Below are positions 3,718 through 12,285 of a stretch of 12,371 nt of DNA, piece by piece. Source of the stretch: a virus; the UHGV virus genome UHGV-0040703, one strand, 5' to 3'. The notes below the pieces were generated by a model. It was given only the letters and a program-made list of their open reading frames with translations, had not been told where the DNA came from and did no database searches. The translations under genes and the position numbers were made by a program. The number at the start of each line of letters is the position of its first letter. Position 1 is the stretch's first letter.

Positions 3718-3760
3718 ATTGCTCTAATGTATTGCTATTTCTTTAATCAAGGGTATTATA
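3718..3760 (+). promoter_or_regulatory. C1 operator overlapping a sigma70-like promoter for lpa
   Basis: ATTGCTCTAATGTATTG (3718..3734) matches 14 of 17 positions of the asymmetric C1 operator consensus ATTGCTCTAATAAATTT. -35 TTGCTA (3732..3737), 16-17 bp spacer, -10 TATTAT/ATTATA (3754..3760). Confidence 0.6.
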
Positions 3761-5537: not shown

Positions 5538-7021
5538 TGGCCAGAAGTTGCGTAACGGATCCACGTTGGCGCGAGTTGGTGGCGCTATATCGTTATGACT
5601 GGATTGCGGCCGCTGATGTTTTGTTCGGCAAAACACCTACCTGGCAGCAGGATCTGATTATTGAGTCTGTGCAGGAACAGGGTAGCAAGACATCTGTTTC
5701 GTCTGGTCACGGTACCGGGAAATCAGACATGACTTCTATCATGATCATGTTGTTCATAATCATGTATCCCGGTGCCCGTGCCATTATCGTTGCGAACAAA
5801 ATTCAGCAGGTAATGACCGGTATATTCAAGTACATCAAGATAAACTGGGCTACGGCCACCAGCCGTTTTCCGTGGCTTGCTGATTATTTTGTTCTGACAG
5901 AAACCGCTTTTTATGAAGTTACTGGTAAAGGTGTATGGACTGTAGTACCGAAGGGCTTTCGTCTGGGAAGTGAATAAGCTCTCGCAGGTGAACACGCAGA
6001 TCATCTTCTGTATATTATCGATGAAGCCTCCGGTGTCAGTGATAGAGCTTTCGGTATCATCACCGGTGCTCTTACCGGACAGGATAACCGCATCTTATTG
6101 CTGTCACAGCCTACACGCCCAAGCGGCTATTTCTACGATACTCACCATAAACTGGCCAAGCGTCCTGGTAACCCTGATGGCGTTTATACGGCGATCACGC
6201 TTAACAGTGAGGAATCACCGCTGGTAACGCCAGCATTTATCAAAATGAAGCTGGCGGAGTACGGCGGGCGTGATAACCCTATGTACATGATTAAGGTACG
6301 CGGACTATTCCCTAAATCACAGGATGGCTTCCTTCTTGGACGTGATGAGGTTGAACGTGCGACGCGGCGGAAAGTCAAGATTGCCAAAGGATGGGGCTGG
6401 CTTGCATGTGTGGACGTTGCTGGTGGTACGGGACGGGATAAGTCCGTTATCAATATCATGATGGTGTCCGGCCAGAGAAATAAACGCCGTGTAATCAACT
6501 ATCGAATGCTGGAATACACAGACGTTACAGAAACGCAGCTTGCCGCCAAAATTTTCGCAGAATGTAATCCTGAGCGATTCCCAAATATCACCATAGCGAT
6601 AGACGGCGATGGCCTGGGTAAAGCAACGGCGGATCTGATGTACGAGTATTATGGTATTACCGTACAGCGTATACGCTGGGGTAAAAAGATGCATAGCCGT
6701 GAAGATAAGAGCCTGTACTTTGATAAACGTGCTTATGCCAACGTTCAAGCCGCAGAGGCCGTAAAATCTGGTCGTATGAGACTGGATAAGGGTAATGAAA
6801 CTATTGAGGAAGCGTCGAAAATCCCTGTAGGGATTAACTCCGCGGGTCAATGGAAAGTGATGAGTAAGGAGGATATGAAGAAAAAACTCAACCTGCACTC
6901 ACCAGACCATTGGGATACATATTGTTTCGCTATGCTGGCGGATTATGTTCCTCAGGATGAAGTGCTTAGCGTCGAAGACGAAGCGCAGGTTGATGAAGCT
7001 CTGGCATGGCTTAATGAATGA
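5537..7021 (+). pseudogene. pacB: pacB (terminase large subunit), interrupted by an in-frame TAA at 5975..5977
   Basis: One frame from 5537 to 7021 gives 494 codons, but codon 147 is TAA (..GFRLGSE*). The N-terminal fragment carries Walker A-like SGHGTGKS; the same frame resumes after the stop with [20 protein letters not shown] (Walker B). The ORF track splits it into 5537..5977 and 6098..7021. Confidence 0.75.
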
Positions 7022-7024
7022 ACA

Positions 7025-7067
7025 TTTGCTCTAATGAATTGTGTTTTTTAACTACCGATGTTACATT
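7025..7067 (+). promoter_or_regulatory. C1 operator-like 17-mer overlapping a candidate sigma70 promoter reading rightward
   Basis: TTTGCTCTAATGAATTG (7025..7041) matches 14 of 17 consensus positions. -35 TTGTGT (7039..7044), 17-bp spacer, -10 TACATT (7062..7067). Confidence 0.5.
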
Positions 7068-7173
7068 GAACCTGACCTCTTGCGCCTTGAGGCATTTTCG
7101 GTTTATGCTTATCAGGCACCTCATTAAAACGGGTGCCGGGATTGAGACCCCGGATAATGCAAAAGGCGACACA

Positions 7174-7195
7174 GACGCCAAAAGCGTCTTTTTTT
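7174..7195 (+). terminator. Rho-independent terminator (plus-strand)
   Basis: Stem AGACGC/GCGTCT around loop CAAAA, followed by T7 (7189..7195). Confidence 0.6.
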
Positions 7196-7221
7196 GTGTC
7201 ATGCCATCGCACAGCCATACG

Positions 7222-7340
7222 TAGCGTTTAGCTCAGAGATCAATGGTAGTGCTGGCTGGGCTGCCGAAAGGCAGGCCGGTTCCCTTTTGCGCCGGTAGTC
7301 TCAACCCAGTCAGTGCTACCGCCATTGAGATTGAGACCTC
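7222..7340 (+). ncRNA. Candidate structured regulatory RNA (c4-type antisense RNA candidate) upstream of the small ORF/antirepressor pair
   Basis: Long imperfect helix 7241..7260 with 7304..7326; internal GNRA hairpin CTGCC-GAAA-GGCAG (7261..7274); tRNA-like TAGCTCAG at 7229..7236. Two segments complement the downstream translation-initiation region: CCTTTTGC (7284..7291) with the SD GCAAAAGG (7362..7369), and CAATGG (7241..7246) with CCATTG (7376..7381) at the start codon. Confidence 0.4.
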
Positions 7341-7380
7341 ACGCGGTAGCTCCTTAAATTAGCAAAAGGAGGCTGCCATT

Positions 7381-7602
7381 GTGGCTACTATCCCTACCCC
7401 TGCTCATTCTGAATTTATCTGGCGCTTTTACTCCTGCCAAAAACGTCACTATCACTTCGTTATTGCACCGACAGAAGATGAGGCACGTTCTCAGCTTCCG
7501 GATGCTCCCTGTATTTTCTCTGCCCGCTTTTCTACCGATTCGCGCAATTCTCTCAGTTACTGGTGCCTCCCTATTAACGCTTCTGCTCAGGAGGGACTAT
7601 GA
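7381..7602 (+). CDS. Small protein, 73 codons, translationally coupled to the downstream antirepressor-like gene (icd-like position in an immI-type operon)
   Basis: GTG at 7381 eight nt after AAGGAGG (7366..7372); its stop overlaps the next ATG (ATGA at 7599..7602). An overlapping TTG-initiated frame (7379..7624) is the alternative. Confidence 0.45.
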   Translation: MATIPTPAHSEFIWRFYSCQKRHYHFVIAPTEDEARSQLPDAPCIFSARFSTDSRNSLSYWCLPINASAQEGL

Positions 7603-8711
7603 GAACGTCATTAGTCACCCGTGAAGAGATGATCGAGGCAATTGAACAGCACACTGCCTGTATCAGTACCAGGGATATACCGGGCGTTATTGCCAACTAC
7701 TTCATGATCACCAAACAACTTTACCGGAGAAAGGACAAACACGCGGTTCACCGCATTCTGCTAACCGATATCCGTGAATACCTGCTCGAACAGGGTCATC
7801 TGAATTACGCAACCGTCGCAGCCGAAGCACGCAAGGAGGCACACAGAATGAAAGCAACTAACGTTAAATCAGAAAAAATTTATGCACCTTCAGTTCAGGA
7901 ATCGGAACTGGTGGTTGTTCAGAATCAGCCGGATGAAATTCCCGTTCTGGAATGGCAGGGAGTACGTGTCGTGACAACCGAAACTCTTGCTAGAGGGTAT
8001 GGGGTCGATGAAGCCAATATTCGCAACAATTTGTCTCGCAACCTTGACCGCTTTGAAGAAGGTAAGCATTACTTTCTTCTAACTGGTTTAAAATTAAGAG
8101 AATTTAAGAACAGAGTAACCGGAAGTTACTCTGTTGGTAAGAACGCCAGAAGCCTTACACTCTGGACAGAGCGCGGCGCTGCACGCATGTCTAAGATCGT
8201 GGACACAAATGAAGCATGGGCATTCTTTGAAAAACTGGAAGACAGCTACTTCCGGCAAAAAGAACAGCAACCGGTTGCAATCCCCCAAACATTACCAGAA
8301 GCCCTACGCCTGGCTGCCGAACTGGCTGAACAAAAGCAGCTTCTGGAACAGAAAGCCCACCAGCTAAATCAGCAGCTGGTAGCCGCCGCTCCTAAGGTCG
8401 ATTTTGCCGACCGGGTATCAGTAGCTAAAGGGATCCTGATTGGGAATTTTGCAAAGGTTGTTGGACTTAAGCAAAACGCGCTGTTTGCCTGGTTACGGGA
8501 GAACGGCATCCTGATAGCGTCCGGTGGACGTAAAAATGTGCCGTTCCAGCAGTACATCAACGCGGGGTATTTCACGGTGAAAGAAGTGGTGCTGGATGAT
8601 GAAGATGGCTACCAGATACGGTTGACGCCTCAATTAACGGGTAAAGGCCAGCAGTGGTTGACGCGTAAACTGCTCGATGCTGGCTTGTTAAAACCGGTGG
8701 CGGCTGAATAA
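7599..8711 (+). CDS. ant: Antirepressor-like protein: ORF6N/KilA-N-type domain plus C-terminal KilAC domain, 370 aa, with nested in-frame start at 7848 (287 aa); Ant1/Ant2-type arrangement
   Basis: AGGAGG SD before the ATG at 7599; second strong SD AAGGAGG (7833..7839) before the in-frame ATG at 7848. Middle region VLEWQGVRVVTTETLARGYGVDEANI... resembles the ORF6N/Bro-N fold; C-terminal LPEALRLAAELAEQKQ...FADRVSVAKGILIGNFAKVVGLKQNALFAWLRENGIL...YINAGYFTVKEV resembles the KilAC signature. Confidence 0.65.
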   Translation: MRTSLVTREEMIEAIEQHTACISTRDIPGVIANYFMITKQLYRRKDKHAVHRILLTDIREYLLEQGHLNYATVAAEARKEAHRMKATNVKSEKIYAPSVQESELVVVQNQPDEIPVLEWQGVRVVTTETLARGYGVDEANIRNNLSRNLDRFEEGKHYFLLTGLKLREFKNRVTGSYSVGKNARSLTLWTERGAARMSKIVDTNEAWAFFEKLEDSYFRQKEQQPVAIPQTLPEALRLAAELAEQKQLLEQKAHQLNQQLVAAAPKVDFADRVSVAKGILIGNFAKVVGLKQNALFAWLRENGILIASGGRKNVPFQQYINAGYFTVKEVVLDDEDGYQIRLTPQLTGKGQQWLTRKLLDAGLLKPVAAE

Positions 8712-8718
8712 TGGAAGA

Positions 8719-8740
8719 ATGCCCGGTTGATGCCGGGCAT
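8719..8740. terminator. Hairpin between the convergent antirepressor-like gene and c1 (probable bidirectional terminator)
   Basis: 8-bp stem ATGCCCGG/CCGGGCAT with a 6-nt loop, flanked by AATTTATT on the plus strand and TCTTCCATTATT on the minus strand; lies between the stop codons at 8709..8711 and 8744..8746. Confidence 0.5.
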
Positions 8741-8743
8741 AAT

Positions 8744-9595
8744 TTATTGCGCGCTTTCGGGGTTGTCGTTTACTGGCTGCCCCTTCTTGGTTTTACGGCT
8801 GCGCGTAACTGATGCGGCTGACTTAACCTTTTTCTCTTCGCGAGTGATGGCAATTTGTTTTTTTACATTTTCAATATCTGCCAGGCGATATATTTTTGCT
8901 TGCGGCCAGCGGTCGCAGATGATCGGTTCTATGGAGTCATAAAGGCTAAATTTTGCTTTTTCGAATTCACCGTTGATGATAATTCCATCACGGAGAGTTT
9001 CATCGCAGATAAACACGCCACACAGTGGCACATGGTAACTAACTGATTTACCATCATTGTAGTTAGGGCTACTGGAAATGTAGTGGACGCGCAGCATTGT
9101 TTCGCTAAAGCCGTGTACGCGCATACGGAATTTTTCATCCTCCGGGTACTGCTTCATTAGCTCTTTTGTTGCTTCCAGGTTCTCTATGTATTTCGCACTG
9201 TGCTCATTGATCCCCGCGCTTTTTTGGATGCGAATATCCTTATCAATCAGATGAATAATGCGGCCAGCGGTCATGTTGACGCTGTTCACAGCCTCTGTCT
9301 GATAAGTTGTAACCTTACGCACACCGCGAAGGATGTTAGGCACTGGATATAAAATAGTCTTTGGGATATTGAGGTCTGGGTACTGTTCCAGTTCCCGCGC
9401 CATTAAAGTCCATTTATCAATTTCAGCCTGAATGCTGTCAGTTTCTTTGAACGGTAGAACGACAACCGGGCGTACAGGACGACCGTCGCTGGCTGTATCA
9501 ACGTGTTGGGCGCGTGCAACAGCTTTTTTTAGAAAGAGATCCCTGAAGCTGACGAACTCCTGGTACAGTTGTTCGCCGTAGACATAATTTATCAT
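8744..9595 (-). CDS. c1: C1 repressor of lysis (primary immunity repressor), 283 aa
   Basis: Translation MINYVYGEQLYQEFVSFRDLFLKKAVARAQHVDTASDGRPVRPVVVLPFKETDSIQAEIDKWTL... matches recalled P1 C1; 283 aa as in P1. Confidence 0.95.
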   Translation of the reverse strand: MINYVYGEQLYQEFVSFRDLFLKKAVARAQHVDTASDGRPVRPVVVLPFKETDSIQAEIDKWTLMARELEQYPDLNIPKTILYPVPNILRGVRKVTTYQTEAVNSVNMTAGRIIHLIDKDIRIQKSAGINEHSAKYIENLEATKELMKQYPEDEKFRMRVHGFSETMLRVHYISSSPNYNDGKSVSYHVPLCGVFICDETLRDGIIINGEFEKAKFSLYDSIEPIICDRWPQAKIYRLADIENVKKQIAITREEKKVKSAASVTRSRKTKKGQPVNDNPESAQ

Positions 9596-9689: not shown

Positions 9690-9706
9690 AGATTTATTAG
9701 TGCATT
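9690..9706 (-). promoter_or_regulatory. C1 operator-like site between coi and c1
   Basis: AGATTTATTAGTGCATT matches 14 of 17 positions of the reverse-complement consensus AAATTTATTAGAGCAAT. Confidence 0.4.
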
Positions 9707-10153: not shown

Positions 10154-10170
10154 TAATTTATTAGAGCAAT
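10154..10170 (-). promoter_or_regulatory. C1 operator (Op99-type), minus orientation
   Basis: TAATTTATTAGAGCAAT matches 16 of 17 positions of the reverse-complement consensus. Confidence 0.65.
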
Positions 10171-10236: not shown

Positions 10237-10253
10237 ATTGCTCTAATAATTCT
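10237..10253 (+). promoter_or_regulatory. C1 operator (Op99-type), plus orientation
   Basis: ATTGCTCTAATAATTCT matches 15 of 17 consensus positions. Confidence 0.65.
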
Positions 10254-10511: not shown

Positions 10512-10733
10512 ATGGGATATTCAACTGCTAAAGTGTCCACTCATCTTGAGCTTGAGAAAAACCGTGGTTACTGGCGGGCAAAAGGGTTTGATCGTGATAG
10601 TTGCCAACTGTCATTATCGCGCGGTGAAGAGAAAATAGAACGCACGCGCGGTCGCTGGCGTTTCTATGACGAGAACCATAAACAGGTAAAGGCAGAGCCG
10701 ATCCTGTACACTTTACTTAAAACCATCATCTGA
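10512..10733 (+). CDS. Hypothetical small basic protein (73 aa) immediately upstream of cre
   Basis: ATG at 10512 four nt after GAGGTG; its stop is 7 nt before the cre ATG. No recognised family; I do not recall it as an annotated P1 gene. Confidence 0.3.
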   Translation: MGYSTAKVSTHLELEKNRGYWRAKGFDRDSCQLSLSRGEEKIERTRGRWRFYDENHKQVKAEPILYTLLKTII

Positions 10734-12261: not shown

Positions 12262-12285
12262 ATTGCTCTAATTGATTGTTATAAT
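12262..12285 (+). promoter_or_regulatory. C1 operator-like site with adjacent -10 element (Op2-type position after cre/cra)
   Basis: ATTGCTCTAATTGATTG (12262..12278) matches 14 of 17 consensus positions; TATAAT at 12280..12285. Confidence 0.5.

Follow-up and report, generated by a model that had tools for sequence, protein, structure and literature searches.

The window (the whole stretch of 12,371 nucleotides of viral DNA that was analysed) comes from a P1-like phage-plasmid, of which it forms the immunity region, and is 99.8% identical to phage JL22. Between pacB and c1 it carries a cassette in which a C1 operator-like site is followed by an isrK-like leader, a C4 RNA, an icd-like open reading frame and the antirepressor gene ant (Table 1). 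The product of the icd-like ORF is named Icd-like protein by PGAP, and its GTG start aligns with the ATG of homologues. The stop codon of this ORF overlaps the start of ant in the sequence AUGA (7599-7602, read from the sequence), and by analogy with P1 and P7 the two genes are probably translationally coupled. Ant contains the Pfam domains ANT/KilAC and ORF6N.

Table 1. Features of the pacB-c1 cassette and their positions in the window
Feature	Position	Strand	Remarks
C1 repressor operator-like site TTTGCTCTAATGAATTG	7025-7041	+	Directly after the pacB stop codon; predicted from sequence
Candidate promoter a	7039-7067	+	-35 TTGTGT (7039-7044), 17-nt spacer, -10 TACATT (7062-7067)
Candidate promoter b	7080-7109	+	-35 TTGCGC (7080-7085), 18-nt spacer, -10 TATGCT (7104-7109)
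isrK-like leader RNA	7116-7194	+	Carries a1 and b1, ends in an intrinsic terminator; three hairpins in the fold
a1 box UUGAGAC (DNA TTGAGAC)	7142-7148	+	Loop of isrK hairpin 2; exact match, complementary to a'
b1 box GCAAAAGG	7159-7166	+	Single-stranded stretch ahead of the terminator; exact match, complementary to b'
Intrinsic terminator of isrK-like leader	7173-7195	+	AGACGC-CAAAA-GCGUCU, then a U run; from a terminator scan, equals the RF01394 3' hairpin
C4 antisense RNA gene	7239-7326	+	Rfam RF01695 match
Predicted mature C4 RNA	7245-7323	+	79 nt, by analogy with the 77-nt C4 of P1
Hairpin 1	7261-7274	+	CUGCC-GAAA-GGCAG, GAAA tetraloop; minimum-energy fold
Hairpin 2	7275-7296	+	Presents b' in its loop; RF01695 match and fold
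b' element CCUUUUGC (DNA letters CCTTTTGC)	7283-7290	+	Hairpin-2 loop; complementary to b2 and b1
a' element GUCUCAA	7298-7304	+	Single-stranded linker from hairpin 2 to the closing stem; complementary to a2 and a1
a2 target UUGAGAC	7331-7337	+	8 nt past the predicted C4 3' end
b2 target GCAAAAGG	7362-7369	+	Overlaps the SD GGAGG (7368-7372) of the icd-like ORF; aligns with P1 b2
icd-like ORF	7381-7602	+	73 aa, GTG start; 81% identical to P1 Icd
Antirepressor gene ant	7599-8711	+	370 aa; 57% identical to P1 Ant1

The operator-like 17-mer differs from the P1 operator consensus ATTGCTCTAATAAATTT by three mismatches, and in an alignment to the annotated P1 genome it is collinear with Oc4/Op51. 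Six operator-like sites are found in the window, where 0.07 would be expected. Candidate promoter a appears from alignment with the annotated P1 promoter to be the counterpart of the C1-controlled P2c4 (P51a); its hexamers are weak, and a simple promoter scan did not call it. Candidate promoter b is likewise a probable counterpart of the P1 promoter P1c4 (P51b), with a predicted start near 7116, and the isrK match begins at this same position, 6 nt past the -10 hexamer. The leader matches the Rfam isrK family (RF01394) over its full length at 59 bits, versus a gathering score of 50. The threshold of the c4-a1b1 family (RF03163), which is passed by P1 (51 bits) and by Gifsy-1 (48.1 bits), is not reached at 7103-7156 (22.3 bits versus 46.7), but the a1 and b1 boxes are present nonetheless.

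The C4 RNA, its fold and its pairing elements

The covariance model for the C4 antisense RNA (RF01695) is matched over its full length (model positions 1-87 of 87) and scores 75 bits where the gathering score is 45 (E 1.6e-13); in the same test the c4 of P1 itself scores 68.8 bits. The leader is also collinear, box for box, with the annotated immI leaders of P1 and P7. An initial sequence-only reading of this DNA had proposed an antisense RNA of the P1 c4 type, to be checked by an Rfam scan and by alignment to P1 and P7 c4, and both of these, along with the identity of the downstream products to Icd (81%) and Ant1 (57%), place the RNA in that family; action in trans would follow by analogy with P1 and P7. 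The same reading allowed that the RNA might be a divergent specificity variant, which is probably the case, as its a and b boxes are unlike those of P1 and P7.

In the minimum-energy fold a closing helix, approximately 7245-7260 with 7305-7323, encloses two adjacent hairpins. This agrees well with the long imperfect helix (7241-7260 with 7304-7326) and the GNRA-capped hairpin (7261-7274) that had been drawn on paper, the cap being GAAA; hairpin 2 had been left out. The 88-nt core has a folding energy of -46.4 kcal/mol versus -28.7 +/- 3.2 in shuffled sequences (z -5.6), and none of the 200 shuffles was as good. Compensatory changes occur at 16 of the 23 pairs in 76 homologues. In the alignment of these 76 sequences, 93.1% of the paired cells are able to pair, versus 77.4% in shuffles, and the covariation score of the family members is 0.485, versus 0.188 in shuffles and 0.06-0.12 when the partners are slid. 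All five pairs of hairpin 1 co-vary in the C4 family. The stem of hairpin 2 is invariant in the homologue set since the search pattern fixed it, and it is uninformative on covariation.

Two tRNA-like features relevant to RNase P are found at the ends of the predicted RNA: a GGU at 7245 that opens the closing stem, and a GCCA tail at 7321-7324. The GGU 5' end and the NCC(A) tail are conserved in the C4 family (83% and 53%), NCC being present in 83% of members. PMC5320573 summarises a rule of Hartmann et al. (1995) in which RNase P matures the 5' end at a GGW and a tRNA-like NCC(A) tail follows the closing stem. The GGU and GCCA of the window agree with what has been described of P1/P7 C4 as a substrate of RNase P and may serve the same purpose. 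A different motif, TAGCTCAG, lies at 7229-7236 as the sequence-only reading placed it, but it cannot be regarded as a conserved tRNA-like signal: it is unconserved in P1, P7 and the canonical leader of JL22, and ARAGORN finds no tRNA there. In the predicted fold of the long transcript, positions 7232-7236 of this motif pair with a2.

The complementarity to the SD of the downstream ORF that had been noticed from the sequence is real, and its target GCAAAAGG was correctly located; the pairing element itself was off by one, lying at 7283-7290 and not at 7284-7291. The second element had been taken to be CAATGG (7241-7246), complementary to CCATTG (7376-7381) over the start codon. Both hexamers are present, but equivalent pairing of at least 6 nt between the 5' flank and the start codon is found in 7% of own-locus versus 6% of cross-locus comparisons among 61 non-redundant loci, and pairing of this type is absent even from close relatives with an ATG start. 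The actual second element is a', which pairs with the UUGAGAC of a2. It occupies the same position as a' of P1 (CUGUCAA), and the position of a2 is fixed in the C4 family at +19 to +23 after CAACCC. Similarly, CTACCGCCATTG, which had been considered an internal decoy copy of the target and actually lies at 7316-7327, consists of the closing stem's 3' strand and the GCCA tail. The duplicated targets are a1 and b1, which lie upstream in the isrK-like leader, beyond the interval covered by that reading, rather than within the RNA.

Own-locus and cross-locus complementarity of at least 7 nt was compared at fixed offsets in 63 distinct specificity variants. For the downstream targets, own-locus complementarity was found in 87% (a') and 71% (b') of variants, versus 4% cross-locus for each element; for the upstream boxes it was found in 86% versus 7% (a') and 54% versus 5% (b'). 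In the window all six boxes (a', a1, a2, b', b1 and b2) are perfectly matched. Cognate loop-target duplexes are predicted to be more stable than non-cognate ones. The a'/a2 and b'/b2 pairings are short, at 7 and 8 nt. No loop-loop contacts are seen in the minimum-energy co-fold of C4 with its target, a result that is uninformative because the method cannot represent kissing interactions, and when mature C4 is co-folded with either the icd leader or the isrK-like RNA, only -2.5 and -3.7 kcal/mol, respectively, are gained, through end pairing. The SD of icd is itself predicted to be partly hidden within a local hairpin (7345-7355 with 7366-7377), and some control may therefore act in cis. A potential third target in cra (TTGAGA at 10552-10557 and GCAAAAGGG at 10578-10586) shows no co-variation and is taken to be fortuitous; both P1, which does not have the cassette, and L083, whose C4 has another b allele, carry the identical site.

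Considering the family membership, the covarying structure, the six matched boxes that co-vary family-wide, the order and homology of the genes, and the match to the operator, it is very likely that the region at 7239-7326 is a C4-type antisense RNA gene and that the cassette around it is a second, immI-like one in a P1-like phage-plasmid.

Regulatory model and alternative readings

The regulatory logic of C4 was established in P1 and P7 during the 1990s, and by analogy the role of C4 in this P1-like plasmid prophage would be to hold the antirepressor operon off. Transcription would begin near 7116, 3' of the C1 operator-like site. Part of it would end at the isrK-like terminator, producing an RNA of approximately 80 nt that carries a1 and b1, and the remainder would continue through C4, icd and ant. 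Cleavage by RNase P 5' of G7245 and 3' trimming near 7323 would then release a stable C4 RNA of approximately 79 nt, whose b' and a' elements could pair with b2 and a2 on the mRNA of its own operon. The pairing at b2 would mask the SD of the icd-like ORF; if icd is untranslated, the overlapping ant would be untranslated as well and an early end of transcription would be expected. With the antirepressor off, repression by C1, and hence lysogeny, would be kept. The a1 and b1 boxes of the leader may compete for C4, whether they act in cis or are carried on a free isrK-like RNA, so that the block could be relieved. RNase P processing, translational repression, coupling or polarity and the action of Ant on C1 are presumed here from work on P1 and P7, and trans-activation by the short leader RNA is presumed from work on IsrK of Gifsy-1.

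A different account of the same region is that it is an mRNA leader with alternative folds that acts in cis only, in which translation of a short ORF from the AUG at 7243 opens the ribosome site and no free trans-acting RNA is made. A model of this kind has been proposed for isrK-orf45-anrP of Gifsy-1, where orf45, which starts at the AUG of C4, is translated, and the authors explain the homologous region mainly by alternative structures in cis and a translated leader ORF (PMC4825925). In the window, the AUG at 7243 opens a 39-codon ORF that ends at 7362, adjoining b2, and both the local hairpin predicted at the icd SD and the pairing of a2 with 7232-7236 in the long-transcript fold would suit such a mechanism. 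However, this ORF stops 19 nt short of the icd start, with no overlap, and has no conserved length or frame among homologues. The kept GGU 5' end and NCC(A) tail (83% and 53%) point to the release of an RNA, the homologous RNA of P1 and P7 is a processed trans-acting repressor, and the Gifsy-1 study itself detects a processed STnc1160 RNA of ~80 nt and suggests a CI-like role for it (PMC4825925). We consider control in cis only to be unlikely. The same ORF has also been read as a gene for a 39-aa protein of the Ash family (7243-7362), the RNA fold then being incidental. PGAP/RefSeq annotates WP_071527722.1 as an 'ash family protein' on an identical plasmid sequence, and the translation matches the Pfam profile Phage_ASH (PF10554) at 29.1 bits versus a cutoff of 26. 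Yet the AUG at 7243 has no preceding SD and lies inside the closing stem, ORFs opened by this conserved AUG differ widely in length, from 14 codons to over 95, the loop of hairpin 2 measures between 8 and 16 nt in homologues, and the length from the start of the stem to CAACC varies by single nucleotides, with homologues divided 46, 15 and 15 among the mod-3 classes. Substitutions preserve base pairs and not codons. Among the homologues, matches to PF10554 are confined to those in which the frame is by chance the same, and translated non-coding isrK-C4-a2-b2 leaders of other loci fill positions 1-99 of its 107, suggesting that what the profile captures is for the most part a translated RNA locus. 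With both frame and covariation evidence against a conserved protein-coding frame, the 'ash family protein' is rejected as extremely improbable.

It could also be argued that the cassette is an inactive leftover of an immI duplication or acquisition and that its RNA features are non-functional, since related phages already have a canonical immI elsewhere and the neighbouring pacB in the window has a nonsense codon, so that the plasmid copy may be decaying. We give this very little credence. None of the six boxes has a mismatch, and the two ORFs are uninterrupted and retain the coupling overlap. Among 5426 complete E. coli genomes, 437 have the segment, mainly on plasmids, and in 265 of these the coverage is at least 80%. 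In the alleles at this site, C4 and the target boxes have changed in a coordinated way, a pattern that requires selection.

A possible second immunity switch

A canonical immI with different a and b boxes is also present in the P1-like phages JL22, RCS47 and D6; D6 has two modules, and its window-type module is at another site. At the pacB-c1 site, near-identical backbones carry three allele combinations in which every target box changes in step with the C4 elements, the b of the RCS47 allele being GUCAAAGG. The C4 copy described here is a previously uncharacterised specificity allele of a well-known phage antisense RNA. Judging from the boxes, the second module should not cross-react with the canonical immI module. 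We suggest, tentatively, that JL22- and RCS47-like phage-plasmids may run two non-cross-reacting C4 antirepressor switches, the second of which would be mobile, have at least three heteroimmune alleles and possibly provide an extra layer of immunity. If a different input drives the second switch, a layer of immunity or anti-immunity not recognised so far would be added; C4 could, for example, be titrated by free isrK-like RNA, or by a superinfecting element, whether a relative or a satellite. Should this be true, the layer would help to decide the coexistence or mutual induction of P1-like plasmids, many of which carry resistance genes.

In itself the C4 copy matters little, as a standard Rfam scan recognises the RNA. 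The practical value is one of annotation, because the inspected records label the segment as hypothetical ORFs or as 'ash family protein' instead of naming an isrK-like RNA gene and a C4 RNA gene. Once annotated correctly, the segment would reveal a second antisense-controlled antirepressor switch in P1-like plasmids that are widespread in E. coli. The series of alleles at the pacB-c1 site shows cleanly, in a natural setting, how an antisense RNA and its targets change specificity together, and it could serve to predict heteroimmunity among P1-like plasmids.

Comparison with known phage systems

The cassette has its parts in the same order as immI of P1 and P7, starting here with the C1 operator-like site and the two candidate promoters and continuing with a1, b1, a U-rich hairpin, C4, a2, b2 over the SD, a 73-aa Icd and an overlapping ant; in P1, as here, b' is in the loop of hairpin 2 and a' is in the linker that follows. 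The boxes themselves differ, a being UUGAGAC and b GCAAAAGG in the window, UUGACAG and GUUAGUG in P1, and UUAGCAG and GAUUGUG in P7. The site is also different (sim to kilA-repL in P1 and P7, pacB to c1 here), and the module in the window is of a type additional to the canonical immI, as in JL22 and RCS47. The P1 leader scores 35 bits for isrK, below threshold, versus 59 here, and 51 bits for c4-a1b1 versus 22 here. The Ant of the window exceeds Ant1 of P1 by 23 aa and carries an ORF6N domain.

The isrK-orf45(STnc1160)-anrP locus of the Salmonella prophage Gifsy-1 has the same order of isrK (79 bits) followed by C4 (69 bits), with a1 and b1 inside IsrK, a2 after C4, and b2 over the SD of the antirepressor gene. 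In Gifsy-1 the isrK terminator is leaky, a processed RNA of ~80 nt has been detected, and IsrK in trans activates the downstream antirepressor approximately 140-fold (PMC4825925). Such trans-activation, like the binding of Hfq by an isrK RNA, is known only from Gifsy-1 (PMC4825925). It differs from the window in that there is no icd, the ORF from the C4 AUG reaching the start of anrP and acting as the coupling ORF; in its boxes, a being UUGGCGU and b (A)UCACCG; and in its host element, a lambdoid prophage. The published mechanism for Gifsy-1 stresses alternative folds in cis and activation by IsrK, and not repression by the C4-like RNA (PMC4825925). The CI RNA of P4, compared here from published descriptions, acts by premature termination of transcription of replication genes and not by an icd-type block of a ribosome site (PMC3632133; PMC4825925). 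IsrK as the a1/b1-bearing partner of C4 is not a new link, as the relation of IsrK and C4 to P4 seqA/CI, P1, P7 and N15 has already been noted (PMC3632133; PMC4825925). The same literature names structural homologues of C4 and IsrK; in each, the small RNA is cut out of a leader and pairs with sequences that lie on both sides of it, upstream as well as downstream (PMC3632133; PMC4825925).

The C4-type RNA and its leader

An Rfam scan of the whole window at the gathering threshold returned two matches: a C4 antisense RNA (RF01695; full model, 75 bits with the gathering score at 45, E 1.6e-13) and an isrK-like RNA (RF01394; 59 bits against 50). The c4 of P1 itself scores 68.8 bits in the identical test. 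The element is an ordinary C4 family member that Rfam detects, with a specificity of its own, and the family and general logic proposed in the sequence-only reading are borne out. The isrK-like RNA lies directly 5' of C4; it includes both a1 and b1 and has a terminator of its own.

Folded in isolation, 7239-7326 is predicted to form a closing stem enclosing two adjacent hairpins (7261-7274 and 7275-7296), at -46.4 kcal/mol. Dinucleotide shuffles give -28.7 +/- 3.2 (z -5.6), with none out of 200 equalling the real sequence. The long helix and GAAA-capped hairpin proposed earlier are both present in the predicted fold. The full interval of that proposal, 7222-7395, gives a z of -4.4. The C4 RNA structure is supported by covariation: in a 76-sequence alignment, where the hairpin-2 stem is invariant by construction, having been fixed by the search pattern, compensatory changes are found in 16 of 23 pairs, paired cells amount to 93.1% versus 77.4% in shuffles, and the covariation score is 0.485 versus 0.188 for shuffles and 0.06-0.12 for slid partners.

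P1 C4 starts with GGU and ends with ACC, and the aligned window positions are G7245 and C7323, giving 79 nt; the closing stem pairs 7245-7249 with 7316-7320 and is followed by GCCA. Among family members, 83% carry NCC after the stem and 53% NCCA. Judged from sequence, these termini and the NCC(A) tail fit the rule reported for P1/P7 C4 as an RNase P substrate (Hartmann et al. 1995, summarised in PMC5320573). The motif TAGCTCAG, correctly placed at 7229-7236 and once suggested to be tRNA-like, lies within the leader portion predicted to be removed; it is not conserved in the leader alignment and ARAGORN finds no tRNA. That suggestion is wrong.

Upstream, a C1 operator-like 17-mer aligns with P1 Oc4 and is one of six window sites matching the P1 C1 operator consensus with at most three mismatches, versus 0.07 expected; the other five are found ahead of lpa, around c1/coi and close to the end of the window. 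Weak counterparts of both P1 c4 promoters are seen in the alignment, and transcription from the second candidate would begin near 7116, where the isrK match begins. The P1 leader scores 35 bits with the isrK model, which is below threshold, and 51 bits with c4-a1b1; in Rfam, isrK and c4-a1b1 are two overlapping families for what seems to be one element. The C4 clan of Rfam includes c4-a1b1 only, not isrK.

Positions of RNA and control features in the window
Feature	Position	Strand	Remark
C1 operator-like site	3718-3734		
C1 operator-like site	7025-7041		aligns with P1 Oc4
C1 operator-like site	9690-9706		
C1 operator-like site	10154-10170		
C1 operator-like site	10237-10253		
C1 operator-like site	12262-12278		
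candidate promoters	7039-7067, 7080-7109		
isrK-like RNA	7116-7194	+	RF01394
a1	7142-7148	+	within isrK match
b1	7159-7166	+	within isrK match
intrinsic terminator	7173-7195		closes isrK-like element
C4 RNA	7239-7326	+	RF01695
b' CCUUUUGC	7283-7290	+	hairpin-2 loop
a' GUCUCAA	7298-7304	+	linker
a2 UUGAGAC	7331-7337	+	
b2 GCAAAAGG	7362-7369	+	overlaps SD
icd SD GGAGG	7368-7372		
SD hairpin (predicted)	7345-7377		

Pairing elements and their targets

The window leader is collinear, box for box, with the canonical leaders of P1, P7 and JL22, and the a and b elements were assigned by position in this alignment; a1, b1, c4, a2 and b2 are all annotated in the P1 record. The pairing was assessed in C4-like loci gathered from viral contigs by a search pattern whose sole fixed parts are the hairpin-2 stem and CAACCC. 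For 63 loci with distinct b-loop/a-linker combinations, we compared each locus with its own flanks and with those of other loci, scoring the fraction of comparisons that gave a complementary stretch of at least 7 nt. In the downstream flank, b' finds such a match in 71% of own-locus and 4% of cross-locus comparisons and a' in 87% and 4%; in the upstream flank, the values are 86% and 7% for a', and 54% and 5% for b'. The offsets downstream of CAACCC are constant: +19 to +23 for a2 and +47 to +57 for b2.

Of the two true complementarities, the sequence-only reading found the one between b' and b2 and missed that between a' and a2. By exact-string check, the SD-overlapping GCAAAAGG stands where it was placed, while its complement CCTTTTGC (7283-7290) had been placed one base off. 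CAATGG (7241-7246) and CCATTG (7376-7381) are also where described, but pairing of the 5' flank with the start codon is not a conserved feature (7% own-locus versus 6% cross-locus in the same test), and it is wrong as the second pairing element. The supposed internal decoy CTACCGCCATTG (7316-7327) consists of the closing stem's 3' strand and its tail; the real decoys, a1 and b1, lie upstream of the proposed interval 7222-7395.

In the predicted local fold, the icd SD pairs with CUCC (7350-7353), and the loop of this hairpin exposes the first b2 bases. Such a hairpin would favour loop-loop first contact with b', and would imply some cis masking of the ribosome site. A third target, considered in cra at 10552-10586 (+) and consisting of an a-like TTGAGA and the 9-nt b-like GCAAAAGGG 26 nt apart, is probably due to chance, as it is identical in P1, which is without the cassette, and in a locus with another b allele (L083), with no co-variation.

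Coding versus RNA

In RefSeq, window 7243-7362, right over the C4 RNA, is annotated as an 'ash family protein' of 39 aa, and Pfam PF10554 (Phage_ASH) matches this translation with 29 bits. Against a coding reading, the segment varies in length by single nucleotides across homologues (46, 15 and 15 in the three mod-3 classes), the loop of hairpin 2 is anywhere between 8 and 16 nt long, and the conserved AUG opens ORFs of 14 up to more than 95 codons. The Pfam matches are limited to homologues or C4 variants in the same frame, and the translated non-coding isrK-C4-a2-b2 leader of two other loci (L004 and L029) fills positions 1-99 of the 107-position profile. By the length, ORF and Pfam evidence, what is conserved is therefore the RNA, and the PF10554 profile appears, from these translations, to represent largely a translated RNA locus.

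A second module and its relatives

The 601 bases around C4 match E. coli plasmid pE102651_87 at 100% identity, phage JL22 at 99.8% and the P1-like phages RCS47 and D6 at about 95%; out of 5426 complete E. coli genomes, 437 have the segment, which is nearly always plasmid-borne. The gene order is phd-doc, pdcB-like, lpa, pacA, pacB, cassette, c1 (opposite strand), coi, cra and cre. The ORF 3' of C4 encodes 73 aa with 81% identity to P1 Icd, and the next gene encodes a KilAC/ORF6N antirepressor with 57% identity to P1 Ant1, its AUG overlapping the icd stop codon (AUGA, 7599-7602). The JL22 GenBank record has a TTG-start ORF, gp121 (window 7379-7624), that overlies the icd-like gene (7381-7602) in another frame, and labels ant 'roi' and the C1 repressor gene (window 8744-9595) a hypothetical protein. 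Within pacB, codon 5975-5977 reads TAA, where the near-identical pE102651_87 has GAA, and the terminase gene is broken up into ORFs of 146 and 307 aa; the stop is either a genuine nonsense mutation, in which case the phage would be defective, or a sequencing error. A GC-rich hairpin with a 9-bp palindromic stem (ATGCCCGG...CCGGGCAT, 8719-8740) occupies the 32 nt that separate the convergent genes ant and c1, and is likely a bidirectional terminator that would restrict antisense read-through into c1.

C4 here belongs to a second immI-like module in P1-like phage-plasmids, an isrK-C4-icd-ant module at 7020-8745 inserted between pacB and c1. The canonical immI beside kilA/repL is also present in JL22, RCS47, D6 and 673R5, and Ro157c2YLVW records match both cassette queries. 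The two modules differ in their boxes within each genome compared: JL22 (loci L123 and L124), RCS47 (L128 and L129) and D6 (L130 and L131). In JL22 the canonical boxes are UUGACAG (a) and GAUUGUG (b), and those of the window type UUGAGAC and GCAAAAGG. Duplexes between loops and their cognate targets are the most stable. Canonical modules are themselves mixed in specificity, that of JL22 (L123) joining the P1 a box to the P7 b box, and further canonical b boxes, ACUUACG and ACGAAUG, occur in D6 (L131) and 673R5 (L133). The pacB-c1 site carries at least three alleles, whose C4 backbones are near-identical: the window type, one with b = GUCAAAGG in RCS47 (L128) and L083, and one with a = UUGGAAC in a further locus (L096); in each, every target box has changed along with the C4 elements. 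In D6 the window-type RNA module lies elsewhere, after ref and before pmgF, ahead of a different antirepressor. The RCS47 record annotates the canonical c4 and leaves the second site blank. What role two C4/antirepressor switches, predicted not to cross-react, would have in one plasmid prophage is a point of some interest.

By analogy with the P1/P7 model, C4 would pair through a' and b' with a2 and b2 and so block the ribosome site of icd, with ant blocked in turn by coupling and polarity; the leader with a1 and b1 would compete for C4. The relation of IsrK/C4 to P4 seqA/CI, P1, P7 and N15 is already known (PMC3632133, PMC4825925) and is not new here. Gifsy-1 has the same order, with Rfam matches of 79 bits to isrK, 69 bits to C4 and 48 bits to c4-a1b1; its a1/b1 lie inside IsrK and its b2 covers the anrP SD. 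In this locus (L126, 34131-34316, minus strand), 'orf45' of the published isrK-orf45-anrP opens with the AUG that lies at the 5' end of the C4 match, and for this reason the processed RNA of about 80 nt detected there, STnc1160 (PMC4825925), probably corresponds to C4. IsrK supplied in trans raises anrP translation about 140-fold (PMC4825925). The Gifsy-1 locus supports the competitor role of the a1/b1 leader.
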